From a virus, in the IMG/VR virus record IMGVR_UViG_3300008050_000026, positions 1-64,000 of that record: a DNA stretch of 64,000 nt. One strand, given 5' to 3'. This document shows, piece after piece, positions 12,584 to 30,942 of this stretch (within the stretch, counting starts at the first letter, position 1; each line of letters begins with the position of its first letter). Below the pieces are notes generated by a model that was not told where the DNA came from, searched no databases, and saw only the letters and a list, made by a program, of their open reading frames with translations. The position numbers were made by a program, and so were the translations under genes.

Positions 12584-12819
12584 TGGCTAAGCAAAGAAAA
12601 AGCAAGAAAAAACATCATTTTTTAGTAAAAGATTGCAAGGTTGGTGATACAATCATCATTACATCTACTGATATTGGTAAGGATCGAGTAAATTGGCCAA
12701 CAATTCGAGATGGTATAATTGCGAAAGCTAAAGATCTTGGATGTTTCAAAGATCTAACGTTGGAAAATATTGATGATGGTACTGAAAATAAAGTCAAAGT
12801 AATGTTCTATGAAGCTTGA
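12583..12819 (+). CDS. hypothetical protein
   Basis: 78 aa coupled ORF. Confidence 0.6.
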   Translation: MAKQRKSKKKHHFLVKDCKVGDTIIITSTDIGKDRVNWPTIRDGIIAKAKDLGCFKDLTLENIDDGTENKVKVMFYEA

Positions 12820-13577: not shown

Positions 13578-14978
13578 ATGTCTAAGAAAATCATAGCTAC
13601 CGATCACCTCCACGTAGCGAAGAACCTTGTTGAAATGTACAAGGGCAAAGAGGATTACAACTCAGAAAAAATTTCAGGTGTATTGGATTACAACCTTGAA
13701 AAAGGTATCATTGATGATGATCAATTCTGTAATGCTAAGGACCAATTGGATACCATTGAAAAAGGTAGGGGAAAGACAAAGAAGATCGGGGAGTTGGATA
13801 AATCAGGCAGGAATATTAAGACTGCCAATGGTTGGGTTCCAGTTAAACATGCTGCAAAAACACATGCAGGCGCAGCTGAAGCAATTGCCAAGAAACAAGC
13901 TGCGGGACTTGATATTTCAAACTATGGACTTGATGAATACCATAAGATCATTGACTCAGCTGTAAAATCAAGGAAAGGTTTCTATACTGGATCTGGATAT
14001 GATACAGATGTTGATTTATATGAAGAAAGGAAAGCATGGGGTGAAAGTTCAAGAAAAACTTACGCGATCTTAAATCTGTTTCATCCAAGAAATAATTTCA
14101 AATATGCATTAGGTCAACAGGATACGTTGGCTACTAAGGTTCTAATGGAAACAACCAATGGGAAAACTTGGAAGAAAGTTGAAGAGCAAGTAATTGGTCA
14201 TGGATATGGTGGTCAAGTTCTTAAAGGTAAGATGGGGCGAATTGATAGTGCATACAATGGGAATGACTATAACAAGTTACGTCTTTCTCCTACGTGGATA
14301 AAACATAGGGAAAATAAAGCTGCTGAAACTAAAGAAAAAGCTGAATTCAAAAATGATCTACTTTCAAAGATACCATTTGATAGTAAGGATGAAGCCAGAA
14401 TTAAAAATATCATTGCAAGGTCAAAAGGTTCAGATAATTCAGCAATGAGTTTTGCACAAAGTATGGCTAATTCTATTAAGGATCCTAATAAAGCTATTCA
14501 ACGAGCATCTGCAGCTCATTCATTAGGACATGGTAGAATAGCTGACATATTTCTTGAAGAGGCATTCAATCTTGGATATGTTTATGAAGAACCTTACTCG
14601 CCAAAGAAAAGGAAACGAGATGGTGAACCTAAGAACTATGGTAGACCTTCACCTATCCTACCTATAGGAAAAATCAATTTGAATACTGGATCTTCTAAAT
14701 ATTTCAATGTTTATGAAACGTGGGGTGAAGACTCAACCTATGAAATATACAAAGATCTTAATTCTGGATGGAGTGATGGATCTAAGAAAAATTACAAGAT
14801 CGTCGTAACATCAGGTAAATCACCTATAAATGATGTTGGTGATAAGGCAGGTTTCATACACGATCAAAATCATAGAGGATTATTTGATGGTGAAATGATA
14901 GACCATGCGACAGGTTCAGAATTAAAAAGGTTAGCAGCAACGTATGGTAATTCAATTTCAGGATACGTATACAAGTAA
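13578..14978 (+). CDS. putative capsid-internal cargo protein 1 (type I header)
   Basis: Leader ..TIEK|G then RGKTKKIGELDKSGRNIKTANGWVPVK; unique C-terminal domains. Confidence 0.6.
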   Translation: MSKKIIATDHLHVAKNLVEMYKGKEDYNSEKISGVLDYNLEKGIIDDDQFCNAKDQLDTIEKGRGKTKKIGELDKSGRNIKTANGWVPVKHAAKTHAGAAEAIAKKQAAGLDISNYGLDEYHKIIDSAVKSRKGFYTGSGYDTDVDLYEERKAWGESSRKTYAILNLFHPRNNFKYALGQQDTLATKVLMETTNGKTWKKVEEQVIGHGYGGQVLKGKMGRIDSAYNGNDYNKLRLSPTWIKHRENKAAETKEKAEFKNDLLSKIPFDSKDEARIKNIIARSKGSDNSAMSFAQSMANSIKDPNKAIQRASAAHSLGHGRIADIFLEEAFNLGYVYEEPYSPKKRKRDGEPKNYGRPSPILPIGKINLNTGSSKYFNVYETWGEDSTYEIYKDLNSGWSDGSKKNYKIVVTSGKSPINDVGDKAGFIHDQNHRGLFDGEMIDHATGSELKRLAATYGNSISGYVYK

Positions 14979-15937
14979 TGAACAACGAGGAAAAGCGCAT
15001 ATCGAATAATATTCTCAAATCCTATGGATTAGACATTGAGAAGGGTAGGGGAACCACCAAGAAAATTGGCGAACTTGATAAGTCAGGCAAGAATATCAAA
15101 ACTGCGAATGGCTGGGTACCTGTTAAAAAACATCAAGCAGGAGGTAGTTCTGAACCAAAAGAGGGAACAATAGCAAGTATCAAAAAAGTTGCAAGAAGTT
15201 TAGGTATACCAAACGATCCAAGTGGATTAAGCGATTTTGTATCTTGGACAAAACGAGGAGGATATGCTGGTGAAAAGAAGGTAGGCACTGTTTCAAGAAA
15301 AGCTATTGAACTTGGTTGGAAAGAGGAAAGCGATTACCATGATACACATCCAGCAAATGGAAATACATCAAAAGGTACAATATTTATCTCACCTGATGGT
15401 AAATTCAAATTAGATGCCAGTGTGTACTTTGGTGAAACTGCAAGCAAAAATGCTTATGGGTTAATGCTAAAAAGGGTTAAGGAGCCTGAAACAAAAGGTG
15501 ATGGTTCAGGACTTCTTGATAAAGTAAAAGAAAATCTGAGAAAAGAAAAACCTCTTACTGCGGCTGTAATTGCTGTGGGTGTTATTAACATGAATACTGG
15601 AATGACTGGTCATGGTTGGAGTATTTATGAAAACAAAGGAATGCATGCTTTCTTGACAGATCAAGGTTCATTGCTATTAGGAAATCCAAAAACATTTGAA
15701 GTTGGTAACAAGGACATAACTCTTAGAGACAATGACTCAAATAGGCGAAAAGAATATGGAGTTGAGATAATTGATAAAGCACCTTGTAATAAAGATGAGC
15801 TTTTAAGTATGCTTGAAAAACACAGGTATCATTATAAACCATTGAAAGCGTTTAGAAAAAGACCTGAGGGAAGTAGAAAATTACGTACATCATATTCTGT
15901 AAAAGGAACTGATCACACTGAAAATTGGAGAAAATGA
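14978..15937 (+). CDS. putative capsid-internal cargo protein 2 (type I header)
   Basis: MNNEEKRISNNILKSYGLDIEK|GRGTTKKIGELDKSGKNIKTANGWVPVK. Confidence 0.6.
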   Translation: MNNEEKRISNNILKSYGLDIEKGRGTTKKIGELDKSGKNIKTANGWVPVKKHQAGGSSEPKEGTIASIKKVARSLGIPNDPSGLSDFVSWTKRGGYAGEKKVGTVSRKAIELGWKEESDYHDTHPANGNTSKGTIFISPDGKFKLDASVYFGETASKNAYGLMLKRVKEPETKGDGSGLLDKVKENLRKEKPLTAAVIAVGVINMNTGMTGHGWSIYENKGMHAFLTDQGSLLLGNPKTFEVGNKDITLRDNDSNRRKEYGVEIIDKAPCNKDELLSMLEKHRYHYKPLKAFRKRPEGSRKLRTSYSVKGTDHTENWRK

Positions 15938-16674
15938 AACCAGTAGCTAAAGACGAACAGAACATTAAGAACCGTATTGCTGAAATGTATGGCAATAAGG
16001 ATGTTCCTACATGTGAAGCAATTGCGAAATCGCTTGGTAAAAAACTCAAATCGGGTGTTATTGATCAAACCTTACATGACAAGGCGATTAACCAACTTAA
16101 TGGTACTGTTGAGAAAGGTGATGATGGGGAACTTGAAAAAGCTCACAAATATGTTAGCAGGTCTGGATCTAAAGGTCATTATAAGTATGTATATCGAGAG
16201 CATGGAGAAAAACCAGCTACAAAACATTTTGATGTAGGTGATCACGTTATGACACCATTTTCAGGAACTATAGTTGTTAGTAAAGTTGAAGGAAATGTTA
16301 TTTGGGATCATAATGGAAGAAGGATCAGTGGTTTCCAATTAAAAGATGCTGAAATAATCGGTTCACCAGAAGCACGTAGGAGAAAGGCACAAACAATTCA
16401 AGATGCCCATAATGCCAAGATAAAAGCTGAAAAGCGAGAAAGGCAGGCAAATAAGATGACTGAAGCTAAATACAATGCAGCCATTAAAGAATGGGCATCG
16501 TCATTGGCTCATGATCTTGGTGACGAAGCAATGGAAAATGTAGGTGAAACAGTTGAGAATTTCATACTTGCTCATCCAAACGTTGTAGACTATATTGAAA
16601 ATAGAAACACGTATGGATACGATAACGACCCACCTGAACTTAGAATCCAATGGGACTTAGAAGGACAACTATAA
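15934..16674 (+). CDS. putative capsid-internal cargo protein 3 (type II header)
   Basis: ATGA overlap at 15934; ..ELEK|AHKYVSRSGSKGHYKYVY. Confidence 0.6.
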   Translation: MKPVAKDEQNIKNRIAEMYGNKDVPTCEAIAKSLGKKLKSGVIDQTLHDKAINQLNGTVEKGDDGELEKAHKYVSRSGSKGHYKYVYREHGEKPATKHFDVGDHVMTPFSGTIVVSKVEGNVIWDHNGRRISGFQLKDAEIIGSPEARRRKAQTIQDAHNAKIKAEKRERQANKMTEAKYNAAIKEWASSLAHDLGDEAMENVGETVENFILAHPNVVDYIENRNTYGYDNDPPELRIQWDLEGQL

Positions 16675-17978
16675 TGAACCAAGAGGAGCAACGCATATCA
16701 AATAATATTTCAAAGGCTTACGGTATTGATATCGAGAAGGCCAGAGGTAAGGTGAAGAAGATTGGTGAACTTGATAAATCTGGAAAGAATATCAAGACAG
16801 CCAATGGATGGGTGCCTGTGAAAAAACATGGTTCTACTTCAATCAAAAAGAAAGCTTCACCAAAACCTAAAAAGGCTAATGCATCTATTCAAGATGATGT
16901 TGCTGGTCCTGATAAAAAAGGAGGATCAAAATTACTTGGTTTTGAAACGTACGATGTTAAAACAAGAATGGATCGTGCAGTTCTGTTTAGCAACTATGAA
17001 GAAAAATACATGGCTGACCATTTTGAAACAAAATGGAAAAGTGATCTAAGCGACCACCAGAAGAATGAAATAAGGGAAGCATTCTTTGCAGATCATGGTA
17101 GAGGAAAAGATAGTGCTGATCCAGAAAAAATAAGCGAACTTCTTGGGGGTAAGTTATCAGAGAAAAATGAAGCTTTATTTGCAATTGAGTCATTTTACAT
17201 ACGCGATCACGAAAAAGGCAACTATACAGATGATATGCTTAATTCTGTAACTGAAAAGACCAAAAAGGTTGTTTCACTTATTGAAAAGAATAAAGATACG
17301 TTCCAAAACTTTATAGCATCATTATATCCAGATACTGAGTCAGCAAATCGTGTTGTTTTGAGATCAAAGGATTTTGACATAATTACAGACGATCTTAATA
17401 CTGCTGCTTTCAAAATGGAATACAGGCCTAAAAAATGGGATAGCAATAGACCAAACATTGGCTTCAAATGTGTTCTTTCAAATGGTAAGATCAATACCAA
17501 TTTGAAAGCAATGCAAACAAACACAGAAAATAGTTTGGCTCGTTTTCCAGACTCTGGAACAAAAGAGCGCCTTGAATTAGAAAAGAAACTGGTTGATAGA
17601 ACAGGAGGTGACTCATCATCTAATGCAAAACATGATGATGAGCTTATTGATCTTCAAAAAATTTATGATAATTATCATACGCTTTCAAGACATTCACATA
17701 AGCAATCAACATCAAATCTTAGTAGAAAGGATGAAAACACATTGCATTTCCACGTAGGTGATATTGGTAAGAAAAAACAAGTTCATGATACTATTAGGGA
17801 TGCATTTTCACTTAGCGTTCCATCTTCAATAGGTGATTACAAGTTACAGGGAATTACTAATGGTGAAAAAATAGTTTCAAAACGTGATCACATGAAGCGA
17901 GCTCTTGAGGTTAGGGAAAATGATTACAGCGAATATGAGAATGATTATAGTATAACGTATGTTTATACTAAGAAATAA
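16674..17978 (+). CDS. putative capsid-internal cargo protein 4 (type I header)
   Basis: TAATG start at 16674; MNQEEQRISNNISKAYGIDIEK|ARGKVKKIGELDKSGKNIKTANGWVPVK. Confidence 0.6.
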   Translation: MNQEEQRISNNISKAYGIDIEKARGKVKKIGELDKSGKNIKTANGWVPVKKHGSTSIKKKASPKPKKANASIQDDVAGPDKKGGSKLLGFETYDVKTRMDRAVLFSNYEEKYMADHFETKWKSDLSDHQKNEIREAFFADHGRGKDSADPEKISELLGGKLSEKNEALFAIESFYIRDHEKGNYTDDMLNSVTEKTKKVVSLIEKNKDTFQNFIASLYPDTESANRVVLRSKDFDIITDDLNTAAFKMEYRPKKWDSNRPNIGFKCVLSNGKINTNLKAMQTNTENSLARFPDSGTKERLELEKKLVDRTGGDSSSNAKHDDELIDLQKIYDNYHTLSRHSHKQSTSNLSRKDENTLHFHVGDIGKKKQVHDTIRDAFSLSVPSSIGDYKLQGITNGEKIVSKRDHMKRALEVRENDYSEYENDYSITYVYTKK

Positions 17979-17989
17979 GTAAATCAATA

Positions 17990-18856
17990 ATGGGAGAAAA
18001 ATACAATCCAGCTGACCTGCTAAAACAAAATAGGCAGGATAGAGTTAATCCATACGAAAGTGATGGAGGACTTCAAAAAGTAGGTGAGACCTATGGCAAG
18101 ATGATTTCCTTGATGAATGAGAATTTCAACAAGGGAAAAATTGATGAAGCGTTATGCAACAGGGGCTTCGAACAACTGGATGGGTTGATTGAAAAGGCAG
18201 GTCATAGGTATATTCGTAGAGAAGGTACTCCTGGGAATTACAAGTATGTGTATGCTGAAGATGCTAAAAAAGGCGATCACGTAAAAACCACCCAACATAA
18301 TGATAAAAATCTAAGCAGAACAAAAGATACTGTTAAAGATCTTCGTATGACTGGTAAAATGTCAAAAGAGGACTATAAAAAGTATCTTGATGGTGGAGGT
18401 AAAGAAACTGATTATGTTGATCATGGTAAAAAAGAAAAATCTATTTCTGAAGAATACGATACTGAGTTAAAAAGACTTAAGGGTCTCAAGGCAAAGGTTG
18501 ATGATCGAGCTGATAAGACGCATAACTATGCTGAAGGGAAACAGCTGTTAAAAGAAAGTGATAAACTTAAAAATCAGATCGAAAAACTTGAAAAGGAGAA
18601 CAAGCAACAATCTTCAGAACCTGAAGAAAACGATTTTGAACCAGATGGAAAAATTCGAAGTAGACTAAAGATGAATTTGAGTCTTGATACAGAAGATCTT
18701 AATACATTCATTGACTCAATAAAAAATCAAGATCTTGAAGACAAAGTGTTTGGATTATTCACAGGATGGTCTAATAGTAGGGAACAAGGTGAGATGTATG
18801 AAAGAATAGAACGCGAACTTGATATGGCGGGTTATGATGCAGCACATTTGGATTAA
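17990..18856 (+). CDS. putative capsid-internal cargo protein 5 (type II header)
   Basis: ..QLDGLIEK|AGHRYIRREGTPGNYKYVY. Confidence 0.6.
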   Translation: MGEKYNPADLLKQNRQDRVNPYESDGGLQKVGETYGKMISLMNENFNKGKIDEALCNRGFEQLDGLIEKAGHRYIRREGTPGNYKYVYAEDAKKGDHVKTTQHNDKNLSRTKDTVKDLRMTGKMSKEDYKKYLDGGGKETDYVDHGKKEKSISEEYDTELKRLKGLKAKVDDRADKTHNYAEGKQLLKESDKLKNQIEKLEKENKQQSSEPEENDFEPDGKIRSRLKMNLSLDTEDLNTFIDSIKNQDLEDKVFGLFTGWSNSREQGEMYERIERELDMAGYDAAHLD

Positions 18857-18879
18857 AGGTTAGTTGTTAATAAAAATCG

Positions 18880-18887
18880 TAAATTTG
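18880..18887 (+). promoter_or_regulatory. Bacteroidota-type -7 promoter element
   Basis: TAAATTTG in gap before 18907. Confidence 0.6.
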
Positions 18888-18906
18888 TTGAAATTCAGTA
18901 GATAAA

Positions 18907-21714
18907 ATGGACGCATTGGAAGAACTTACAGGAGGCAACCTTACAGAACAAGCTAAGGATAGGATCTCAAAATCATATACATCCAGAGTAGGCGAACGAA
19001 AGATTGCCACAACTGCCTTAGCTGTAAAGACCCTCAACGATAATTTCAATAAGGGACTAATAACTGAAGACCATCTTGAAAAGGCATTCAAACAACTTGA
19101 TGGTATCATCGAGAAATCATTTCATAAGTATCTAAGTCGAGCTGGAACCCCAGGGCATTATAAGTATGTCTACCTTGAAGACCAAAAGAAAGCTGGTCAA
19201 AAAAAAAGAACAGAGGTTGATGTAGAAGGTTCAGGAACAGATGCTTCATTAGATGCACAAGCCGATAAGATTGTTCAAAGTTCAATTGATAGATATAACG
19301 ATCGCCACAACCAATTACTGTTCCATCCAAGTAGATTGCTTGAACGTTCTGTGAAACATGGTTTCATTACTGAGGAGCAATCTAATAATGAAGATTTCAT
19401 TGCTGCTGCCGAAGAGGTTGCTGAACGTTGGACCGAGGATCAGGATCCAGATGGTGATTTTGGTTCATCTGATTTTACAGCAGCTCTGGCAGATTTTATG
19501 GATGAAGCAGGCATCGCTTATCATCGAGGTGAAAGACATGAACTTAAACCAGGGCCAAAGGTAGTAAGCGATGCTGAAGTAAATGAATTAAAAGACCCAT
19601 CTGACCCAGGCTTTACTATCACAGGTGAATATGAAGGTAAACCAGTAGAATTCTCAGGTGAGCAACTTCAAAATGCTATGGATGGTGCTTTCCATAGTGC
19701 AAATACCCCAATGGATTTTGCTATTAAAGTTTTATATGCAGTAACTGATCAGACAAGCGAAATATCAAACGAAGATATGTCAAAGTTAGAATCGTGGTAT
19801 TCAGCAGAAAAAGATAGGTTACGTGGAAGAGGAGATAAGGAAGACGAAGCTGATACTTCATATAAGGGAGCAAATACTGCATTGGCAAAAATTACAGATC
19901 TTGTGAAAGATTGGTCTGGTGATACAATTACAGAAGCTGAAGTTTTATCAGTAATTGAAGCAGCCGATGATTACGGTGTTGAAGAAAATATGTTCAGAAT
20001 AGAACATCCTCGAAATCAAGATGAAGAAAGCAGAAGAGTAAATTTTGCTACTGATTACATTACAAGAAATATTCCTGAAGGGATGTGGTTACATACTATG
20101 GAGCGATCAGATGTTCGTGATATTGTATGGGGAATGGTGATGGCAAAAAGAGGTAATAACAGTATCAAGATATTTGATGCATTAAAAAAATCTGATGTTG
20201 ACATTGATATTTTGAAAAAAGGTAATTCAACACCATTCGTATTTACTGAAGAACAAGATGCATTCCTATTCAATGTGTTTGACATCATGAAAGGTGCTCC
20301 ATCAGGAAAGATTGCTAAGAAGGTCACTGTCAAAAAGAAAGATGGTGGGACTTACATGGCAACACGTTATTTCAGCCAAGAGGAGATTGATGAAATGGAA
20401 ACAAAAGGTACCACCCAAGAGGAAATGGATACCGATACATCCAATAAGATCTATGAAATATTAGAAGGGAGCAAAGCTAAATCAGCTCAACTTCGTCAAT
20501 TGATTGAAATAGGTATTCATAATCCATTCCATTTGATGGCAATGAATACTGATTACAACGAGTCAAATGTATCTCATTATCTTAAGGAGGCAGGAATTGA
20601 TCCAAAGTCATTTGGTTTTGGTAAGAAAAGAAAAGCTGCAACTGTGAATGACGATGGTTCAATTGAATATGAGGAGGACGATGACGAACCAAATCAAAAT
20701 GAATTGGAGCAGGAGATAGAAGCAATGCTTCGAGCTGATGGTTTGCTTTTTGATACTGATCTTATGGAAGCAAATGCTGAAACAGGAAAAGATGCTGTAG
20801 ATACTGTTCAGGATAAATTTGTCAACAAGGTAGCAAAAGGTGAAGCTAAACTGGCTATGATATATGGCACAGGAGGTGTTGGTAAAACATGGGGAGTAAA
20901 ACAAACTATGACTAACCCATCTGTTAAGGATGAATGGGGAGAAGAATTTGGCAATGAGTTAGTAGAATATGACTCAGAACTTCAACCAAATTCTGAAGAA
21001 TACGATTTCATAAAGTTCACAGGTCAAATATCACCTTCAAAACTTTATCGCGCATTGTATGAACACAATGGCAAAATTCTTATGCTTGATGACTGTGATG
21101 CTGTTCTACAAGATAGAACAATGGTGGATATGCTTAAAGGTGCTACAGATACAACATTGGAAGATATTGTTTGGGATGGTATGCCTATCAAACCTACAGG
21201 AGCTGATAAGGATACACCACCACTCCCTACGCGCTTCAAATTCAAAGGGGGCATTATATTCATATCGAATATGACTGAAGAAAAATTAAGACAAACTGCA
21301 TCACCTCTATTAGACTCGAGGGCACTTTCGCTTAATGTATCAAGAACAAAGGAACAGACAATTGACAAACTTGATCGTATCAAACAACACATGGAGTTTG
21401 AAGATACAAAAGGCAATGTCATAGAAGTTTCGCCAGAGTCAAGGGACGCTGCGGTTGAATTTGTGAAAAAATGGTCTAAGTATGCTGATATTGCTAAGAT
21501 CAACGCAAGAACGTTTGGTTCATTGGCAAAGGATTATGAAAGTTCAAAGTATAACGGTGTAGAAGGTTTCTTAAAATCACATTCAGCTCGATCAATAATG
21601 AATGTCCTTGATCATCAGGTTAAGAAGTACATTTATACTGAAAAGAAAAAGGAAATGAAAGCGGCAAAGGATAAAGCTGCTTTGATGAAGTCAATACATA
21701 ATCATATAGGATAA
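18907..21714 (+). CDS. multidomain cargo polyprotein with C-terminal AAA+ ATPase
   Basis: Type II header after IIEK|S; internal DIMK|G plus type III header; Walker A GTGGVGKT (20866-20889), Walker B ILMLDD, IIFISN, LDSR. Confidence 0.7.
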   Translation: MDALEELTGGNLTEQAKDRISKSYTSRVGERKIATTALAVKTLNDNFNKGLITEDHLEKAFKQLDGIIEKSFHKYLSRAGTPGHYKYVYLEDQKKAGQKKRTEVDVEGSGTDASLDAQADKIVQSSIDRYNDRHNQLLFHPSRLLERSVKHGFITEEQSNNEDFIAAAEEVAERWTEDQDPDGDFGSSDFTAALADFMDEAGIAYHRGERHELKPGPKVVSDAEVNELKDPSDPGFTITGEYEGKPVEFSGEQLQNAMDGAFHSANTPMDFAIKVLYAVTDQTSEISNEDMSKLESWYSAEKDRLRGRGDKEDEADTSYKGANTALAKITDLVKDWSGDTITEAEVLSVIEAADDYGVEENMFRIEHPRNQDEESRRVNFATDYITRNIPEGMWLHTMERSDVRDIVWGMVMAKRGNNSIKIFDALKKSDVDIDILKKGNSTPFVFTEEQDAFLFNVFDIMKGAPSGKIAKKVTVKKKDGGTYMATRYFSQEEIDEMETKGTTQEEMDTDTSNKIYEILEGSKAKSAQLRQLIEIGIHNPFHLMAMNTDYNESNVSHYLKEAGIDPKSFGFGKKRKAATVNDDGSIEYEEDDDEPNQNELEQEIEAMLRADGLLFDTDLMEANAETGKDAVDTVQDKFVNKVAKGEAKLAMIYGTGGVGKTWGVKQTMTNPSVKDEWGEEFGNELVEYDSELQPNSEEYDFIKFTGQISPSKLYRALYEHNGKILMLDDCDAVLQDRTMVDMLKGATDTTLEDIVWDGMPIKPTGADKDTPPLPTRFKFKGGIIFISNMTEEKLRQTASPLLDSRALSLNVSRTKEQTIDKLDRIKQHMEFEDTKGNVIEVSPESRDAAVEFVKKWSKYADIAKINARTFGSLAKDYESSKYNGVEGFLKSHSARSIMNVLDHQVKKYIYTEKKKEMKAAKDKAALMKSIHNHIG

Positions 21715-21947
21715 TGGCTAAAGAAGAAAAAACACCAGAAAAAGAAGTTGCTGAAAAAGGTAGTAATACCGAAAGTTCAGGATTGGATTTATCAAATGAA
21801 ACTGATGAGTCACTTAATACAACTTTAAGGGTTATGATGAGAATATATCCACATCAAACAACCCCTGTAATGCAGGCGTATTATGATGAGCTTCAAAAGC
21901 GTGGTGTAAAAGCACCTGAAAAGGAAACAGAAAAAGATGCTGCATAA
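21714..21947 (+). CDS. small hypothetical protein
   Basis: 77 aa; TAATG coupling. Confidence 0.6.
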   Translation: MAKEEKTPEKEVAEKGSNTESSGLDLSNETDESLNTTLRVMMRIYPHQTTPVMQAYYDELQKRGVKAPEKETEKDAA

Positions 21948-21949
21948 CC

Positions 21950-24472
21950 ATGGCAAAAGTAATGCCTGTAGGTACTGTACGTCACTGGAAAAAAGGTGAT
22001 GTAATAAAAGCACATGATGGTACAGCCATGCATTCAGGCTGGATAGGCCTCGAATCTCCAGAACATTTAAGACAAGTTTTCAAGGAAGCAGATACGTTAG
22101 CAAATATTCTGTATAAGAAAAAAGAGCCAATCAGTGGTGAAGTTTACCTTGATCATGAATTGAGGGAAGTAAAAAGACCACCAGATAAGAATTCAGGTCC
22201 TTATTCACCAGACAAATTCAAGATCTACGAAGGTTTCTATGGTGCAGGCAAATATTCGTTCTTCAATGAGTTTTCAAGGTTATTCATGGCCAAGAAAATT
22301 GAAGCACAGGAGTATTATATAGATATGCTTCGAAGATACAATAGGGAGGAGAAGCAAGGGAACGATAGACTTGATAGAACTTCATCTGATGAAAAGAAAA
22401 TGATAAGAAGGCGATCTAAAGAGTCGTTTGTCTTTTCAGGTGAAGAACTTAATGAAGGAGATGCACATGATATTGTAGCCTTAGTCAAAAAGGTATACAA
22501 GCACATGGAAAAAGGTATGAAGCTTGAACCTGATGAAAAAAAGGTTTATGATAAAGCAGCTGCCTTAGTTGATGGATTACCAATTAACTATGTAAGGTTG
22601 AAAGAAGCCATGCGTAGAAAGGAACTTGCTGTTAAGTTAATAGGTAAGAAATTTCCAGATAACTGGGCCATTCGAGAGTCATTCAGAATAAAGGCGACTG
22701 AGAAACTAAATGAATATCTTAAGAAATATAAGGATAGGATAGCTGAAGACGAAGCCAAGGATCAAGAAGCTACATTTGGTGTATCGTTGGATGCTCCAGT
22801 CGATGAGTTCTATGAAGCTGTATATGATAAGATTGATGGCGAACTTCATAAAGTCAAGAATTTTGATTTTGAGACATTAAAAGGTAAGAAGCACGATATT
22901 GTAATGAAAGGTGCTTACAATGGTGAACCTACACATGATTGCGTAGTTATTGACTGGAAAAAAATGATTGAAAAAAATTCAGATCTTCAAGCTGAATTTC
23001 CAGAGGCAACATATTGGATAGGTAAACCAAAACCAAAAGATAAAGAAAGTGATCCTCAGTTATATTATATGTCTCCAATCGAACCAGAGGATGAGCTTTA
23101 TTACAAAGCGCAGTTTCATCAAATGAAATACCCATTTGCTGAATTGGTCAAATTAAGATTTGCGACTAAGTACCAAAAGGAACTTGATGGTAATTGGACG
23201 TTTGATCTACTTCCAGCAATGGAAAACATTGAAAGGGCTCTTACAGGCTTACCAGAAGGACATGTATTGAACAATAAATACATTGAAACGTTCTCCCAAC
23301 AATCATTTAATGGGGGATCACATGGAGGTTATGCTTGGTTCAGTGACCATGATAGTAAGATAAATTTCTCAGATGAATGTGCAAAGCATGCAAGTATCTG
23401 GGCAAGGAGTTCAATTGCACCTGAGTTCAAAGCTACATTATATCATGAAATAGGTCATGGAGTAAGTAAAAGGTTTGGGCGTGATGGGAACCTTGATTAC
23501 AAGAAATTCACAGTTGCCGCAGGTTGGTCATATCATCAAGCTGAATTAAGAGCTGGTTTTACAAGAACAGGTGATGATAAGAATTTACCAAGACATGGTT
23601 CAAATTCTGGTACTAAGTTATTGACAGCTTATGCGCATAAATCACAGGAAGAAGCTTTTGCTGAATATTATTCAATCTATAACCTTCATAAGGATGCAAT
23701 TGATAAATGGTTAGAAACAGGTGAGTCGAAACATCTTAAAGAAACCTATGCTGTTGAGGTACCTATGAAGATTGAGAAGAAACAGTTGAAGGAATATTTC
23801 AATGATGGTTCAAATTGGGCTTTATCGTCTCAAATTAAAAATCGCTTGATTGATTTTAAGGGTAGAAACAAGATAAATATTCAAGAACATCTCGGTTTAG
23901 ATCTTATTTCACCACATAGGTGTTCAACAGTAAAGACTGAGAAAAATAAATACAGTCCTCCAAAGGTCCTTGGAAGAAAACATAGGCAAGCACATTATGT
24001 CCCACCAGTTGTAGCAGTAAAAGACAAGAATAAGTATAAATTACTCGATGGTGTTAATAGGCAAAAGGAGTTTATGTTGAAACATAAGATGATGCCAGCT
24101 CAGTTAATATCTCAGGAGCTTTATTCACAAATGAAGAAAAACGATTTTACTGACGAGGAAATTACAGGTATCGTATCATTTCATTTGAAAGATAGTATGG
24201 TACCTATTCAGGTTTCGCAACCTGTTAAAAGAGAGGGATTGATGTACAGGAACAATGTTCTTGATTATAAGGATCTTGAAAAGAACATCCAGCCCATAAG
24301 GGCTATGAAGAAAATATTTCACAGTTCAGCTTTAGTGAAGGCATTAGGAGAAACATTTGGAATAGTAAAACAAGGCCATGAACAAGGTATTGTGACCGAT
24401 GTTGATTATTTTAATGCCATCGTTAAGTATAATGAACATCGAGAAAAATTGTTAAATGGAAGAACCAGTTAA
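21950..24472 (+). CDS. multidomain protein: zincin-like metallopeptidase plus ParB-like domain
   Basis: LYHEIGH (HEIGH at 23444-23458) with downstream YAHKSQEEAFAE; PPVVAV..YKLLDGVNR; N-terminal PVGTVRHW header-like motif. Confidence 0.7.
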   Translation: MAKVMPVGTVRHWKKGDVIKAHDGTAMHSGWIGLESPEHLRQVFKEADTLANILYKKKEPISGEVYLDHELREVKRPPDKNSGPYSPDKFKIYEGFYGAGKYSFFNEFSRLFMAKKIEAQEYYIDMLRRYNREEKQGNDRLDRTSSDEKKMIRRRSKESFVFSGEELNEGDAHDIVALVKKVYKHMEKGMKLEPDEKKVYDKAAALVDGLPINYVRLKEAMRRKELAVKLIGKKFPDNWAIRESFRIKATEKLNEYLKKYKDRIAEDEAKDQEATFGVSLDAPVDEFYEAVYDKIDGELHKVKNFDFETLKGKKHDIVMKGAYNGEPTHDCVVIDWKKMIEKNSDLQAEFPEATYWIGKPKPKDKESDPQLYYMSPIEPEDELYYKAQFHQMKYPFAELVKLRFATKYQKELDGNWTFDLLPAMENIERALTGLPEGHVLNNKYIETFSQQSFNGGSHGGYAWFSDHDSKINFSDECAKHASIWARSSIAPEFKATLYHEIGHGVSKRFGRDGNLDYKKFTVAAGWSYHQAELRAGFTRTGDDKNLPRHGSNSGTKLLTAYAHKSQEEAFAEYYSIYNLHKDAIDKWLETGESKHLKETYAVEVPMKIEKKQLKEYFNDGSNWALSSQIKNRLIDFKGRNKINIQEHLGLDLISPHRCSTVKTEKNKYSPPKVLGRKHRQAHYVPPVVAVKDKNKYKLLDGVNRQKEFMLKHKMMPAQLISQELYSQMKKNDFTDEEITGIVSFHLKDSMVPIQVSQPVKREGLMYRNNVLDYKDLEKNIQPIRAMKKIFHSSALVKALGETFGIVKQGHEQGIVTDVDYFNAIVKYNEHREKLLNGRTS

Positions 24473-24593
24473 AAAGTGGAAGATCACATACGGTAACCTT
24501 GAAACAGAAGATTACGAGGGTACATTCAATGAAGCGTATGATCATGCTATGGTTAAGAGTAAAGAATTCGAAATTCTACCAGCTGATGAATGA
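24456..24593 (+). CDS. small acidic protein (45 aa) absent from ORF track
   Basis: MEEPVKKWKITYGNLETEDYEGTFNEAYDHAMVKSKEFEILPADE; overlaps both neighbours by a few nt. Confidence 0.55.
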   Translation: MEEPVKKWKITYGNLETEDYEGTFNEAYDHAMVKSKEFEILPADE

Positions 24594-27500
24594 TATAATC
24601 GAAAAATCACCTGCTGGTGTCTACGTAAACAATCCAAAGAATAAAAAGTTGGGTAGGGTAGGTGCCAGATATGGTACGTCAAAGACTGCAGGTGAATATT
24701 ATGGCAAGACTGTTAAGCATTTCAAGGAATATTCAAATGCAATAAATAACATCGCTTCAGAACTCGGAGGTGTTGCAATAGTAGCCCCACCTAAAAAACT
24801 TGAAAGAGTTCAGTATAAAGCCAAACATGAATACGGTGGTGATTTCAAAAAGGTCAAAGACATTTTAAGATCAACAATCGTAATAGGTAGAAGTAAAGCG
24901 TTGGAGCTTTGTGATACGATAAGGAAAAAATACCCATGCGTAAAAGCTTATGTAAATTTTAGTTCAGAAGGGTACCAAGGTGCCAATTTTGTATTTTCAT
25001 TTAAGGGATTTCCAGTTGAACTTCAAGTCAATACTCCAGTCAATATGGTTTTGAAACAAGGCCATGATGATAATCCTGCGTTGAAAAATGCTTATGATAT
25101 GATCAACAGTGCTGGTATACCTACTGGACTTGGTCATAAGTATTACGAAAAGTTAAGACAGGCTGGATTATCTGAAGAAACAAATACTATTGGTACTAAT
25201 TTGATGAACAAGTACTATAACTATAGGGAACTGTTCATGTTGCGTGATGAACTTACAAAGGCTTCAAAACATGGCCATGGTAAAAAAAGAAAACCCATTG
25301 TTGTTTACAATAAGAAGACTGGCAAGACATATACAAGGAACCAGATTGTAGGTGACAAACTTGAAGAACATGAGACTAAGCATCCCATAAACGAGTTCTT
25401 AAGAGGTTTAACAAAATTGTCAGCTGGCAAACAAGCCGAATTCTTCAAATGGGAAAGGGACAATGCAAAATACGTTGAAGTAAATCCAATAAGCGATCTA
25501 CCTCAAGATGTTCAAGATAATATTTGGGCAACAGGTCCTAAGATCAAAGAATGTTTTGGTAATTCTGCAAGGATCGCGATGGGAGGTATAAAGGGAGCTA
25601 AATATGTTGAAGGCTTCGTTTCTTTTGCAGGAGTGATACCTTTGGAACATGCTTGGGTCAAAATTGGAGACAAATATTACGATCCAACAGCTGAAGGTCC
25701 TTTGAAAGGAGGATCAGACATGGGACATTATACAGCATTGATTGAACTCAATGAAGATGAGGTTCTTGATTATATGGTAAAAGAAAGGAAACATGGACCT
25801 TGGGTAGGTTCATATTACTATAATAATAACGTTATGAAGAAAGGACTACTATCTACTTTGTTGAACCCATTTACTAAATTATTCGATAAACCAGAGTATC
25901 CTGAAAACATCTGTAAATCCTCAGATGAGACGACATTCAAGAACTATGCTGACTGTATATTAGTAAATGAAAAAGGTCAGCTTCTTCTACTCCTACGTGC
26001 TGATGGTGATTTTTATCCGAGACACTGGTGTTTGCCTGGGGGTAAAATAGAACAAGGGGAAACACAGGATGAAGGTGCTCTACGTGAATTGCTCGAGGAA
26101 ACAAACATCAAACCAGTAGGTTACAACTTCTTACGAGAATATGATAATGGTGATGGTACAACTTCAAGCTATTATGAAGTCCATTGCAGTGAAAATGATT
26201 TGATGATACTTGATAACAGTGAGCATTACAACTGGTGTTGGGTAGATCAAGTTGAATTAGAAAAGTTACCTTTGATACTAAGTTTACAGGAAAGGCTTGT
26301 AGATTTATTGCCATTGACAACATTCGGTATGTTTCAAGCAAACCCTTTTACAATGACTTCAATAATCGAACAAGAGACCAATAATATTTCACCACAGTTA
26401 CAGGCCAAGCATCAAAAAGAAGATGCTGCATATTACATTATTAAAACTGCCTATGATAATGGCCAACTTGGGGAGGCAGCATTCTTGAAAGCTTCATCGC
26501 AATATACTGAAATCAAAAAAGGACGCCCTGCACAAATTGGTGAGATACGAGAATGGGGAGGAGTTAAGAAACAAAAAACTGCAAATGGATGGGTCCCAGT
26601 TAAATCAGGTAAGAAAGGAGCTAAAGTTGAGGATGAGGGAAAGGATGAGAAAACTGCAAAACCAGAGGATGAAAAAACTCAACATTCTGAAGAGGAACTT
26701 GCTGGACATGCTCAAAACGCTTCTGAAGCTGACCTAAAGAAAACAGTTAGTAATTCCAAGGATGAGAAATTAAGGGTTGCTGCACAAAAGGAGCTTCAAC
26801 GTCGAACCGAACAATCTGATGAGATTACTGGTAAGAACAAAGATGAGGATGCTGATGGTTGGGCTAAGAAAGATGGTGAGGATAAGAAAGGTGCTGGCGG
26901 AGAAGCAAAAACTCCCGAACATGATTATTCTGAAGATGAAGATGGATTTCATGAACAAGTTTCAAGAGCAAGAAAAGCTTATGACAATCCAATGGATGAT
27001 AAGATGAAGGATCATGCAAAGTCTTTCCTTGATGGGGCAAAAGACCATAAGAAGAAAATGGGCTTTGGTTCAGAACCTGAAGACAAATCTGTTGAAAAGG
27101 AGAAATCTGATAATGCAAAAATGAAACAAGTCATGGATTTCCTTGATGGAGAACATGGTGGTGCTTCATTAGAACCAGTAAAAGGCAAGCCAGGGTTGTG
27201 GCGAGACTCAGAAAACGATATTCTTGATAAGAAAGACATAATTGCTCTTCACGAACAGTTTGATAAAGAAGGCTTGTTTGAAGAAGAGGGAATAAGCCCT
27301 GATAGTGGAAAAGATGACGATGGTTATCAAGAATGGTTAGAGAGCAGGAATTGGCGAAAACCACAAGCAGAGATTGATGCAGAGGAAAAAGCAAAGAAAG
27401 AAGAAACAACTGAAAAAGCTGGAGATCAATTATTAGAAGACTTGGGAATTGGTTATTCAACAGATACTTACAGCATATTTTTATCAGATGGGGTAAGTTC

Positions 27501-27771
27501 TAAGACTACACCAACAACTCTTGATAAAATGAAAAAGAATGGTGAAGATTTTGTTGAAGATAAAGAATTCAATCTAAGTCAATTGGAAGGGTTTATTGGT
27601 GGAGAAGACAAAATGAAAGAAGCTGTTAAGAAACGAGCAGCAAAAGAAAAAGTTTCCAATGACGAAATGATGTGGGCAGATAATTACACCGAAACCCAAG
27701 AAAAATTAAAAACCGCAAAAGATGGTCTTAGTAAAATAGAAGCTAAGATGGGTGAAACTAAAAAGAAATAG
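24586..27771 (+). CDS. cargo polyprotein: RelA/SpoT-type synthetase, transglutaminase/papain-like domain, Nudix hydrolase, acidic domain
   Basis: ATG 24586 (MNDIIEK|S); K..R...K, DILRST, GYQG, VELQVNT, GHKYYE; KECFGNS/EHAW/YDPT; Nudix box GKIEQGETQDEGALRELLEETNI. Confidence 0.8.
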   Translation: MNDIIEKSPAGVYVNNPKNKKLGRVGARYGTSKTAGEYYGKTVKHFKEYSNAINNIASELGGVAIVAPPKKLERVQYKAKHEYGGDFKKVKDILRSTIVIGRSKALELCDTIRKKYPCVKAYVNFSSEGYQGANFVFSFKGFPVELQVNTPVNMVLKQGHDDNPALKNAYDMINSAGIPTGLGHKYYEKLRQAGLSEETNTIGTNLMNKYYNYRELFMLRDELTKASKHGHGKKRKPIVVYNKKTGKTYTRNQIVGDKLEEHETKHPINEFLRGLTKLSAGKQAEFFKWERDNAKYVEVNPISDLPQDVQDNIWATGPKIKECFGNSARIAMGGIKGAKYVEGFVSFAGVIPLEHAWVKIGDKYYDPTAEGPLKGGSDMGHYTALIELNEDEVLDYMVKERKHGPWVGSYYYNNNVMKKGLLSTLLNPFTKLFDKPEYPENICKSSDETTFKNYADCILVNEKGQLLLLLRADGDFYPRHWCLPGGKIEQGETQDEGALRELLEETNIKPVGYNFLREYDNGDGTTSSYYEVHCSENDLMILDNSEHYNWCWVDQVELEKLPLILSLQERLVDLLPLTTFGMFQANPFTMTSIIEQETNNISPQLQAKHQKEDAAYYIIKTAYDNGQLGEAAFLKASSQYTEIKKGRPAQIGEIREWGGVKKQKTANGWVPVKSGKKGAKVEDEGKDEKTAKPEDEKTQHSEEELAGHAQNASEADLKKTVSNSKDEKLRVAAQKELQRRTEQSDEITGKNKDEDADGWAKKDGEDKKGAGGEAKTPEHDYSEDEDGFHEQVSRARKAYDNPMDDKMKDHAKSFLDGAKDHKKKMGFGSEPEDKSVEKEKSDNAKMKQVMDFLDGEHGGASLEPVKGKPGLWRDSENDILDKKDIIALHEQFDKEGLFEEEGISPDSGKDDDGYQEWLESRNWRKPQAEIDAEEKAKKEETTEKAGDQLLEDLGIGYSTDTYSIFLSDGVSSKTTPTTLDKMKKNGEDFVEDKEFNLSQLEGFIGGEDKMKEAVKKRAAKEKVSNDEMMWADNYTETQEKLKTAKDGLSKIEAKMGETKKK

Positions 27772-27786: not shown

Positions 27787-29430
27787 ATGAAAGCTGCAAA
27801 AGATAACTTCAAATTCTTTATACCTGCCGATTTTGTAAAAGGCATTGATGATGATGGTCATGAGACTATGATGATCAAGGGAGTAGCTTCTACCAATAGA
27901 AAGGACTCACAAGGTGAAATACTCGATGTGAATGGTTTCGATCTTACTGATTTCTCGGTTATCAATTGGAACCATAAGGGAAAGGATGACGCAGGAGCTA
28001 TAATTGGCGAACCTACCAAAGCTGAGGTAAAAGGGAACAAGTTATTGATTGAAGGCATGCTTTATCCAGAAATGCCAATGGCGAAAGCTGTATTCAATTT
28101 AATGAAGGCATATAAGAACTCCCCTACAGGAAAACAACTTGGACTATCAATTGAAGGAAAGGCATTGTCAAGAGATAATGTAAACCCAAAGAAAATCAAT
28201 AGGGCCAAAGTAACAGGGGTTGCAGTATGTCCACATCCTATAAATGGGGATACAACTGTTGAACTATTGGAAAAAAGCTTTACACATGGAGATTTCGAGT
28301 TTGATGAAGATGAACTTGAAAGTGTAGAAAAAGCAAATGACTTCTGGTCCTTAATAGATAGTGATAGCAAATTCAAAGAATATGTTACTTCTAATAATAA
28401 GGAAGACAGAGCTGGTGGTGAAATTGGCGATATTACTGAGATAGAAAGGAATAGATTACTTAAAGCTTATACGGCAGCAGGTAACGTTCACGTATCTAAG
28501 GAGTCAGTAGAACACGATCCAAAAGGCATTGTAGATGGTAAAAAGAAAAATTTATCAAAATCTGATGTCTACGAAAAGATTTTTGATTATTTTGGTCCCG
28601 TCGAAACAAAAACGGCTCAAGGAATATACTCGTTAGTAGATAAAATTTCAACTATGGAAAAGCAACCTATCTCAGAAGACACTCTCAAAAAAGCAGAAGA
28701 AATCCTTAACCTTTCAACTGAGGAACTTATTAAGAAAGCAGCAGAAGATGGAGGCGATAAGATAAGTGATGATGATGAAGGTGACAAGAAAGATGGCGAA
28801 TATGAGGGAGAGGATGGAGTAGAAAAAGCAGAAGCATTTGCAAAATCAGAATTTGCAAAAGGAACCAAAGAAGCTGACATCGTCAGTACCTTAACTAAGG
28901 GAGGCCTTGGAATTGAAAAGGCACAAGCATGTGTCAAATCATGTGTTGCTGAAGCCAATCGAAAACGAGAAGGTGGAGACGTTACGACTTTGAAAAAATC
29001 ATTTGATGAGCAAACTGACATCATAAAAGGTTTCGGTGTTTCAATGGATCAAAAATTCTCAGCTGTCCTTGATATTATGAAAGGACAATCTGAAAAGATT
29101 AGCTCACTCGAAGAAATAAATAAAGGATTGGCTTCAGAAATTGAAGCATTTGGCAATTCAGGTGCCAAAAGGAAATCCGTTCCATCATTGAAGATGATCG
29201 AAAAATTCGAAAAATCTGTTGATGGTTCAGAAACGTATCAACTATCCAATAAGACTTCACGAGGATTACTTGTATCTCGCATCAATGAGGCTTCAGGCTT
29301 GAATGGTGGAGATCCAGATAAAGTGAATATGGCACTTGCAAGGGTAGCACAAGACATTGAATTGACCCAATCGGTTACTGCACCAGGGCTTCAGTTATTG
29401 AAGTCGCATCAAATCGAGGTTATCAAATAA
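27787..29430 (+). CDS. prohead protease fused to scaffold
   Basis: IKGVAST..DSQGE, INWNH, IIGEP, GLSIEG, VAVCPHPIN; charged helical C-half; directly upstream of capsid gene. Confidence 0.88.
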   Translation: MKAAKDNFKFFIPADFVKGIDDDGHETMMIKGVASTNRKDSQGEILDVNGFDLTDFSVINWNHKGKDDAGAIIGEPTKAEVKGNKLLIEGMLYPEMPMAKAVFNLMKAYKNSPTGKQLGLSIEGKALSRDNVNPKKINRAKVTGVAVCPHPINGDTTVELLEKSFTHGDFEFDEDELESVEKANDFWSLIDSDSKFKEYVTSNNKEDRAGGEIGDITEIERNRLLKAYTAAGNVHVSKESVEHDPKGIVDGKKKNLSKSDVYEKIFDYFGPVETKTAQGIYSLVDKISTMEKQPISEDTLKKAEEILNLSTEELIKKAAEDGGDKISDDDEGDKKDGEYEGEDGVEKAEAFAKSEFAKGTKEADIVSTLTKGGLGIEKAQACVKSCVAEANRKREGGDVTTLKKSFDEQTDIIKGFGVSMDQKFSAVLDIMKGQSEKISSLEEINKGLASEIEAFGNSGAKRKSVPSLKMIEKFEKSVDGSETYQLSNKTSRGLLVSRINEASGLNGGDPDKVNMALARVAQDIELTQSVTAPGLQLLKSHQIEVIK

Positions 29431-29466: not shown

Positions 29467-30942
29467 ATGGACGCAAAATTAGCAGATTATTTAGATGTCG
29501 AAGGCTTTGGCAGCGAAGGCGGAGTTGAGGAACTCTTGAAAGCGATGCAAGCTGGTGCTATTACAGGTCGTGATACCACAAATCAGGCATTAACCCAGGA
29601 ACCACTCAAAGTGGAAAGCTTGGAAACGACCCTTAAACTTCTTGATTTCAGGATGAAAGATATTCGCCTGATGAACAAGATGCCAAAACTTACAGCCTAC
29701 AACACGGTTGAAGAGTTCTTGCAACTTGAAAGCTATGGAGCTGATCGAGGGGGTTTCTATAACGAAGGAGAACTATCCGATGTTGAGGATAGCACTTACG
29801 TAAGACGTTCTGAACTTATCAAGTACATCCAAGTTACGGGTGAGGTTACCTTGCAAGCTCAGATGGTTCGTTCTTATGTGGATGCGATGAGGAAAGAGGT
29901 TGAAAACAAGACCATGTGGGTTTTGCGAAAAGCCAACTCAGCAATGACCAAAGGAAATGAAGATCATATCGGTCAGGAATGGAACGGACTTTATAAACAA
30001 CACGCAGCAATTGGTGTTGGTGCCGGCTTCCTATATAATACTATAGAGGAGTATTACAATTCCAATGTAGTGATTGACCTTCGTGGAAGATCATTGGTCC
30101 AACAAGATGTTGAAAATGCAGCTGTTATCGTGGATGACAACTACGGAACTCCAACTGATCTATTTGCTGTCCCAGGTGTTATCTCAGCTCTGGCCCAAGA
30201 TTATTACCAAGACCAACGTATCCTACAACAAGGAACGGCAGTTAATGGTGTAATTGGTACTTCGCCAAAAGCTATCTCCACAACTATGGGGGATGTGGCT
30301 TTGAGTTCTGATAAGTTCATGGCGCAACAAGGACAACGTCAAACAAAATTGCTTACGGATGGAGCAACATCGACCAAAGCACCAAATTCGCCAGTAACTG
30401 GTGGAGCACCTGCAGTGGTTGTTGATCCAATTTCCAAATACATTGCGGCAGAAGCTGGAAATGCTTTCTATGCTGTTAGTGGTATCAATCGATTTGGTGA
30501 ATCTGCATTGACCATATTAGATGCTGCGGCAGTTGCGATAGTTGCTGGAGGAGCTGTTGATTGTACATTTGTATCTGGTGGAGGAGCAGTTCCGGCAACA
30601 GGTTACACTATTTATAGAACATTGATAGGTGCACCAAGCACAGGAACCTTCTATCCAATCTTCACTGTTTCGGCAGCTGAAGTTGCTGCAGGATACGATG
30701 GAGGTGGTGTTGGAGTTATTAGAGATCGAGGGCGAGCTCTTCCAAACACTGAAACTGCATTCATGACAGAAATGATAGATGATGTCCTTTCATTGAAACA
30801 ACTTGCACCAATCTCGAAATTGGATCTTGCTGTATTGTCAATGAGTAGACGTTTCATCAACTTCATGTTTGCAACGCCACATTTGTATACTCCACGAAAG
30901 CTTGTGAAGTTCATCAACGTTGCCACTACCCTCACACCATAA
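29467..30942 (+). CDS. major capsid protein
   Basis: 491 aa; EELLK|AMQAG propeptide, LKVESLE motif of SPO1/K-like capsids; followed by terminator. Confidence 0.92.
   Translation: MDAKLADYLDVEGFGSEGGVEELLKAMQAGAITGRDTTNQALTQEPLKVESLETTLKLLDFRMKDIRLMNKMPKLTAYNTVEEFLQLESYGADRGGFYNEGELSDVEDSTYVRRSELIKYIQVTGEVTLQAQMVRSYVDAMRKEVENKTMWVLRKANSAMTKGNEDHIGQEWNGLYKQHAAIGVGAGFLYNTIEEYYNSNVVIDLRGRSLVQQDVENAAVIVDDNYGTPTDLFAVPGVISALAQDYYQDQRILQQGTAVNGVIGTSPKAISTTMGDVALSSDKFMAQQGQRQTKLLTDGATSTKAPNSPVTGGAPAVVVDPISKYIAAEAGNAFYAVSGINRFGESALTILDAAAVAIVAGGAVDCTFVSGGGAVPATGYTIYRTLIGAPSTGTFYPIFTVSAAEVAAGYDGGGVGVIRDRGRALPNTETAFMTEMIDDVLSLKQLAPISKLDLAVLSMSRRFINFMFATPHLYTPRKLVKFINVATTLTP

Follow-up and report, generated by a model that had tools for sequence, protein, structure and literature searches.

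In phage T4 the internal proteins IPI-III and Alt carry a capsid targeting sequence (CTS), a conserved leader of roughly ten residues that the prohead protease gp21 cuts off at a site of the form L/I-x-E. Encapsulins address unrelated enzymes into their HK97-fold shell through short, conserved and transferable cargo-loading peptides. T4 and a few other phages are the only ones for which the choice of proteins to be carried in the capsid and injected is understood in detail. The phage-type polyvalent proteins described by Iyer, Burroughs, Anand, de Souza and Aravind (2017, J Bacteriol, PMC5512222) are encoded in head-gene clusters and predicted to be packaged and injected. In phiKZ and SPN3US the prohead protease processes many proteins of the head interior at the short consensus S/A/G-x-E (PMC11297242; PMC5694885; PMC10052503), and in phiKZ protease-processed minor proteins are bound to the inner capsid wall (PMC11297242). 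Here we analyse the first 64 kb ("the window") of one 97,074-base contig of an uncultured phage (IMG/VR IMGVR_UViG_3300008050_000026), in which four genes share a peptide with the core KTANGWVPVK, referred to as the type I header.

We consider it reasonably probable (about 0.6) that this header is the core of a small mobile cassette that marks phage head cargo, the leader being cut off and the header left behind as a handle. The cassette would open with a cut-like motif, [ILV]-x-K with G, A or S as the next residue (mostly IEK↓G in the window phage, the arrow marking the presumed cut); five residues further on would come a basic β-meander of 22 residues, [IV]GE[IV]RxWxGxKxxKxxxGWxPV, shortened in three tandem genes to IGELDKSGKNIKTANGWVPV; and a flexible, K/E-rich linker would lead into an interchangeable enzyme or unknown module. 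Carrier proteins would be built into the prohead, where the head maturation protease would remove the leader, or the module that precedes the header, and would destroy the scaffold at the same motif. The header would then stand at the new N-terminus of each cargo module, and cargo with any enzyme part would present the same handle. Candidates for what it binds are the packaged DNA (the net charge is about +5 and a Trp is exposed), the inner capsid wall and the exit channel.

Such a cassette would resemble the T4 CTS in being an N-terminal extension that loads otherwise unrelated proteins into the prohead, loading and cutting being predicted here from sequence; in having a cleavage motif that is also present in scaffold proteins; and in having cargo that is predicted to include enzymes injected with the DNA. 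The two share no sequence similarity, and they differ in what is conserved. Leaders vary across the header family, and the conserved piece of about 30 residues is found behind the presumed cut, so that cutting would leave it on the cargo, retained and not removed. The residue before the presumed cut is Lys instead of Glu ([ILV]-x-K↓[GAS]); a conserved, removed leader ending in L/I-x-E was not what we found. Encapsulin peptides, unlike the header, are usually C-terminal, extended and unprocessed, and binding of the header to capsid protein is a candidate idea only. Propeptide-type processing of head-internal proteins, predicted here, is shared with phiKZ and SPN3US, for which no common header peptide has been reported.

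Conservation and distribution of the header

The original prediction had placed four copies of KTANGWVPVK in the window (Table 1), and all four translate as it stated; a six-frame search of the window for NGW[VIL]P[VIL] brought up no further copy. Its description of scrambled synonymous sites was borne out as well: the Val codon after Trp differs in every copy (GTT, GTA, GTG and GTC), and the Ala codons (GCC, GCG, GCC, GCA) and Gly codons (GGT, GGC, GGA, GGA) vary. The three tandem copies agree in 28-29 of 31 residues and in 69-74 of 93 bases. In the codon alignment that had been suggested as a check, pS among them is 0.76-0.94, which is saturated, and dN 0.05-0.07 (Nei-Gojobori); within the ten-residue core dN is 0, and dN/dS of the header copies is far below 0.1. 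At identical residues they have 10-13 of 27-28 codons in common, and random draws on genome codon usage give 11.8 ± 2.5. Codon sharing is therefore what chance gives, and homology between the copies has vanished from the DNA. The case shows a strong protein-level constraint persisting between copies in one genome after DNA similarity has fully decayed.

Two readings at the level of DNA were considered and rejected. A DNA-level element is not supported, because the likeness of the copies' DNA does not exceed what the protein imposes; selection against recombination, in the form of an active avoidance of DNA identity between tandem copies, is not needed, because codon sharing is random and not below random, and simple saturation suffices. 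A megablast search with the 18-kb block against the phage collection gave no match.

The protein bodies of the three tandem genes show no detectable mutual similarity (BLASTP E > 0.2), and the header that they share is therefore a cassette on different bodies. The original prediction had taken the tandem copies as the type form, and this assignment has to be reversed: they are a derivative two residues shorter, in which a conserved Arg and the first Trp are lost (42-46 bits), and it is the internal copy that has the canonical form (72.4 bits against the rebuilt profile). The shortened derivative is also found in at least five other clusters (P0043, P0044, P0053, P0055 and P0144).

Searching IMG/VR with a degenerate DNA pattern for ANGWVPV turned up six true matches, each of which reads ..IKK[AG]K.AQ[IVLM]GE[IV]R.W.G.KM.KEANGWVPVK. 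A 43-column profile made from the four window copies and five of the IMG/VR matches was run against 1.84 billion representative proteins, and yielded 433 clusters at E ≤ 1e-3, 55 of them at E ≤ 1e-10. The consensus reads D-x-[LI]-E-K-G-K-x-A-Q, then the meander pattern given above, then K-x-G and a K/E-rich stretch. Across 79-116 diverse sequences the header residues G, E, G, K, K, G and W are near-invariant. The presence of the module in 433 protein clusters of other phages, the low dN/dS and the randomised synonymous sites all agree with the earlier view of the header as old and selected.

Among the best 150 proteins we counted 175 header copies, 120 of them N-terminal (the motif ends near residue 63), 51 internal and 4 C-terminal; 23 of the proteins hold two or three copies. 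The occurrence of the header on unrelated bodies and at all three positions would suit a stable mini-domain or linker without any signalling role, spread by cassette recombination among phage effector genes. We judge this highly improbable in view of the very strong constraint (zero dN in the core and the seven near-invariant residues), the strong N-terminal bias and the coupling at fixed distance to a cut-like site, described below.

Searches for a known family gave no name for the header. With eight pieces that contain the header, no Pfam match was better than E 0.05, the best E in a PDB sequence profile search was 0.76, the ESM Atlas had no cluster that names it, and six of its peptide strings had no occurrence in the literature searched. 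Among 50,697 deposited phage records it is detectable only in the Leptospira phage LE1 (gp25, with two internal copies) and in the Chryseobacterium myovirus MA9V-3 (three proteins). A strict peptide pattern had no confirmed match in 185,579 prokaryote genomes, a strictness that leaves room for prophage copies.

The three proteins of MA9V-3 (PV245944.1; 3379-5016, 5683-6129 and 6371-7933) are annotated as "hypothetical", and their type I headers, two of which stand in one protein, are diverged (..LEKGGKRAF-IGEVRTFSG.. is an example); MA9V-3 is the closest cultured relative and offers a tractable phage-host pair. About 65 IMG/VR contigs of up to about 108 kb (L034-L098), mostly from sample 3300045988, in which this phage clade is abundant, have in common a protein of 230 residues encoded a few kilobases upstream of the portal gene, with an internal header variant, ..DIEKARKGEP-IGTVKSWGGKEYVKTANGWV... 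Three database proteins, P0040 (74 residues), P0045 (78) and P0117 (75), consist of little beyond leader and header, and may be complete mini-genes or truncated gene calls.

The cut-like motif in putative cargo, scaffold and capsid proteins

Headers of either type in the window, type II being the peptide HKY..R.G..G.YKYVY, sit behind [ILV]EK[AGS], the internal type I copy behind EIKK↓G. Across the type I family, [ILVMF]xK[AGS] occurs no more than 14 residues upstream of the header in 129 of 135 copies (96%; background 12%), and the two are separated by 5 residues in most cases (99 copies), by 6 in 21 copies and by 7 in 8 copies. The stretch D.LEKGKxAQ is equally conserved before N-terminal and internal copies. 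The middle residue of the motif varies across the family (E in 82, I in 13, K in 12), which leads to the general form [ILV]-x-K↓[GAS].

The strict pattern [ILV]EK[AGS] was defined on the cargo leaders and then counted in scaffold proteins, with P values from composition-preserving shuffles. Over the whole proteome, the cargo-plus-protease block has 14 occurrences where 1.4 are expected, and all other proteins together have 9, where 6.8 are expected. Four occurrences fall in the window's protease-scaffold fusion (0.30 expected, P=1.5e-4), six in the protease-scaffold protein of a related IMG/VR phage, L031 (P<5e-5), and three in a scaffold-like protein beside the protease of a 107-kb gut phage, G002 (P about 1e-3); none was found in the capsid and portal proteins. 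With the looser pattern [ILV]xK[AGS], these three scaffold proteins have 15, 19 and 7 sites where 3.1, 2.5 and 1.2 respectively are expected, and the annotated scaffold of Bacillus phage SP-10 has 8 against 1.2. None of 5000 shuffles matched the observed looser-pattern count in any of the four proteins, in which the enrichment is 5-8 fold. The eight sites of the SP-10 scaffold (NC_019487.1, 2253-2915) lie within 220 residues, and nearly all of them read ..K-S.

Similarity among the capsid proteins of the window phage, the Bacteroides phage DAC19 and SP-10 begins at residues 23-33 with a conserved L-x-K↓A-[ML]-[EQ]-A-G, the L-x-K↓A falling at residues 24-27; in the window it reads ELLK↓AMQAG, at residues 23-26 (29533-29544). 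Since the motif is enriched in scaffolds, stands at the conserved start of the capsid proteins and lies upstream of headers, [ILV]-x-K↓[GAS] is probably a maturation-protease site, and if it is, internal header copies too would become N-terminal. The same counts suggest [ILV]-x-K-[SAG] as a general cleavage rule for this protease lineage, the SPO1-like phages included.

The original prediction had also pointed to ORF 21950 as beginning with a related motif but no leader, and this was well founded. The protein begins MAKVMP-VGTVRHW..G.VIKA...GWI. When the proteome is ranked against the header profile, residues 2-24 come fifth (6.2 bits, E 0.009), and all 28 of 28 homologues of the protein open alike, with Met1, 5-6 residues (9 in P0302) and then [IV]GT[IV]RxW..G.VIKA...GWIPL. 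The distance from Met1 to the header in this family is the distance from the cut-like site to the header elsewhere. These openings lend independent support to a header that would work near a free N-terminus. Several of the homologues hold further canonical cassettes before C-terminal add-on modules.

The fixed spacing (5 residues in 99 of 129 copies) and the conservation of the whole P5-P5' stretch, D.LEK↓GKxAQ, could instead mean that the header is a docking element on the P' side, which holds the substrate on the maturation protease and has no later role. However, scaffolds hold many cut-like motifs with no header behind them, six header copies have no cut-like motif, and the ORF 21950 family keeps its header at the extreme N-terminus with nothing to cut; a free N-terminus at the same distance without cleavage argues against a mere docking aid, and we regard this explanation as quite unlikely.

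The processing enzyme could also be a zincin-like metallopeptidase of polyvalent proteins, possibly ORF 21950, which would cut the cassette after ejection and not during head maturation. ORF 21950 contains the motif HEIGH, the LE1 carrier matches PHROGs common to DarB-like proteins, and in the view of Iyer et al. (2017, PMC5512222) peptidases of this kind separate polyvalent proteins into their units. The cut-like motif, however, is most enriched in scaffolds, that of SP-10 included, which are classical prohead protease substrates; and ORF 21950, which has no Pfam or PHROG match, lacks a Pfam peptidase match in particular, and is a putative metallopeptidase by its HEIGH motif. We think this alternative very unlikely. 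The homologues of ORF 21950 span 556-1420 residues, and some are extended by DUF5661 or NUDIX behind further cassettes of cut site and header.

A number of points weigh against a header exposed by the head maturation protease. The case for the cut site is made by enrichment statistics, and the looser pattern was widened after the variants had been seen, which makes it less independent than the strict one. Six of the 135 copies are without the motif, and at the four C-terminal copies cleavage would release the header without cargo. In the structure model described below, the motif closes a helix that is predicted with confidence, and if so folded it would possibly be a poor protease substrate. 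The protease matches none of the Pfam protease families, being not Peptidase_S78 in the window or in relatives, and a polyvalent metallopeptidase, such as the HExxH of ORF 21950 suggests, could do the processing in its place. No published cleavage rule for the protease lineage, SPO1/Twort-like phages included, was found in the literature, nor any virion proteome or N-terminal sequence for the window phage, MA9V-3 (PMC13120357) or LE1. The earlier claim that the header must sit at a mature N-terminus is therefore upheld in part: the position 5-7 residues from a cut-like motif in 96% of copies, internal ones included, and the same spacing from Met1 in leaderless proteins speak for it, the six copies without a motif and the four C-terminal ones do not, and we infer the requirement itself.

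Predicted fold, carriers and possible function

An AlphaFold model of the internal-copy region, from an alignment of 79 rows, has two helices, the second ending in ..EIKK, then a loop, GRPAQ, and three strands (EIRE, GVKKQK and GWVP); pLDDT is 83-95 over residues 21-80, and a disordered tail follows. The 39-residue header modelled alone gives the same three-stranded β-meander, at a pLDDT of about 88-90. The 22-residue core is thus predicted to be a three-stranded β-meander, with a net charge of about +5 to +6 on the header and two exposed aromatic residues on the sheet.

The charge, the two aromatics on the three-stranded sheet and the flexible linker would suit a header that acts in the infected cell, as a small basic β-sheet by which each enzyme, once injected, would be held close to the incoming genome through DNA or a host factor. 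Carriers are enzymes acting on nucleic acids or host proteins, and SPP1 gp7 and the T4 internal proteins do bind DNA. Such a role leaves the fixed distance to a free N-terminus or cut site unexplained, and no DNA-binding family matches the header sequence or model in the Pfam, PDB sequence and fold searches. We consider it unlikely as an explanation on its own; it is compatible with the head-cargo cassette, of which it could be the last step.

For both models the top fold match is 8y6v_I, a chain of 34 residues in the capsid structure of phiKZ (8Y6V). The match is weak (Foldseek E 0.17-0.23; 0.17 and Z 2.7 are not significant for a likeness to phiKZ) and by VIA-align, at Z 2.7 and an rmsd of 1.9 Å over 27 residues, it is not separated from unrelated rows; we treat it as a lead and not as evidence. 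A complex prediction of a capsid protein with residues 1-85 of the leader-plus-header cassette reached a score of 0.02, where the mark is 0.32, and speaks neither for nor against binding.

A Pfam scan of 116 carriers left most of them without a known domain; in the others it recognised NUDIX (8 carriers), ADPrib_exo_Tox (4), DUF5661 (4), Topoisom_I (3), Zeta_toxin (2), Kinase-PolyVal (1), UvrD and LPD5 (1). LE1 gp25 matches DarB-like and minor-head-protein PHROGs, and is followed by a ParB protein. Where the context is readable (in the window, L003, L031, L035 and LE1), carriers adjoin portal, protease or capsid genes. Elsewhere, type I and type II headers occur together in the same polyproteins, each behind LEK[GA]. 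The reading of the header as a peptide signal on virion cargo, offered in the original prediction, fits the gene context, from portal to protease and capsid, and the effector domains of the carriers; packaging is the part of it that we infer.

These arrangements resemble those of polyvalent proteins, which have at least two effector domains per chain. As in that class, the putative cargo genes lie between the portal gene and the protease and capsid genes, relatives have the same layout, and the header-carrying family as a whole has the domain repertoire of the class: ART, Zeta toxin, Kinase-PolyVal, LPD5, NUDIX, helicase and ParB neighbours are shared with the polyvalent proteins of PMC5512222. 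Relatives also string several modules per chain, and carriers elsewhere have two to three cassettes with several domains. The window differs in that most of its carriers are single-module genes, a "disassembled" form; in the protein of 1061 residues NUDIX alone is recognised. No header or cut-site cassette between modules was found in the passages of PMC5512222 examined.

It is conceivable, as a tentative extension, that the type I header is one of a few interchangeable address peptides retained on cargo, the HKY..YxYxY hairpin being another, and that such a peptide at a free N-terminus would be sufficient for retention in SU10/SPO1-like heads and delivery with the DNA.

Genomic setting and significance

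The genes of the window lie nearly all on the + strand. An eight-gene run (13578-27771) between a glycosyltransferase-like gene and the protease gene contains the header copies (Table 1).

Table 1. Features of the window that bear on the header cassette (cargo assignments are putative)
Feature	Coordinates	Strand	Remarks
Portal protein	1320..3035	+	phrog_12; upstream edge of the head-gene block holding the cargo genes
Cargo gene 1 (466 aa)	13578..14978	+	leader about 59 residues, cut-like TIEK↓G, variant type I header 13755-13847; body unrelated to other cargo genes
Cargo gene 2 (319 aa)	14978..15937	+	leader 22 residues, DIEK↓G, variant type I header 15035-15127
Type II header cargo gene	15925..16674	+	HKY..R.G..G.YKYVY behind ELEK↓A
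Cargo gene 3 (434 aa from ATG 16674)	16674..17978	+	leader 22 residues, DIEK↓A, variant type I header 16731-16823
Type II header cargo gene	17990..18856	+	header behind LIEK↓A
Type II header cargo gene (935 aa)	18907..21714	+	header behind IIEK↓S; C-terminal P-loop, phrog_1250 match
ORF 21950 (840 aa), zincin-like HEIGH motif	21950..24472	+	residues 2-32 (21953-22045) are a leaderless diverged header, VGTVRHW..G.VIKA...GWI
Large multi-module gene (1061 aa from 24586)	24586..27771	+	opens MNDIIEK↓S; NUDIX about 25945-26265; canonical header, then long K/E/D-rich tail
Canonical type I header, internal	26512..26604	+	behind EIKK↓G, inside the 24586..27771 gene
Head maturation protease (residues 1-170) fused to scaffold-like tail	27787..29430	+	phrog_1028
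Major capsid protein	29467..30942	+	SU10_MCP / phrog_752 family; homologues carry PF17236 SU10_MCP

Two gene starts were reassigned. Judged by where the database proteins P0041 (MNQEEQ) and P0010 begin, the third tandem gene most likely starts at 16674 and not at 16650, and the large gene at 24586 and not at 24499. The three tandem genes are without a recognised domain, and in the large protein NUDIX is the sole Pfam domain reported (E ≤ 0.01). A stretch of the N-terminal part of the large gene (24586-25900), GVYVNN..N.KLGRVG, recurs in L035 and in the Bacteroides phage DAC19_202. The type II protein of 935 residues has its P-loop, GTGGVGKT, in the C-terminal half and resembles an ATPase module as cargo; phrog_1250 itself is of unknown function. 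Directly 5' of the cargo block lies a gene for a phrog_7999 protein of unknown function (12809-13546), the putatively glycosyltransferase-like gene, and the same order is found in L031 (7395-8132).

The nearest deposited phage is MA9V-3, with a capsid identity of 61%; the Bacteroides DAC phages and the SPO1-like Bacillus phages are remoter capsid relatives. A precedent from HK97 for the protease was considered and set aside as not transferable, since Pfam gives no Peptidase_S78 in the window or its relatives.

A cut site with a retained header would be a short, recognisable unit marking cargo modules in hundreds of protein families of uncultured phages and in two cultured ones. It would provide a sequence rule for finding injected effectors in metagenomes, most of the present carriers having no known domain; a predicted cleavage rule for a large lineage of head proteases that includes the SPO1-like phages; and a tag with which foreign proteins might be loaded into phage heads. 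If the header should indeed be one of a few interchangeable address peptides, tailed phages would have a general, transferable cargo code distinct from the leader-type signal of T4.

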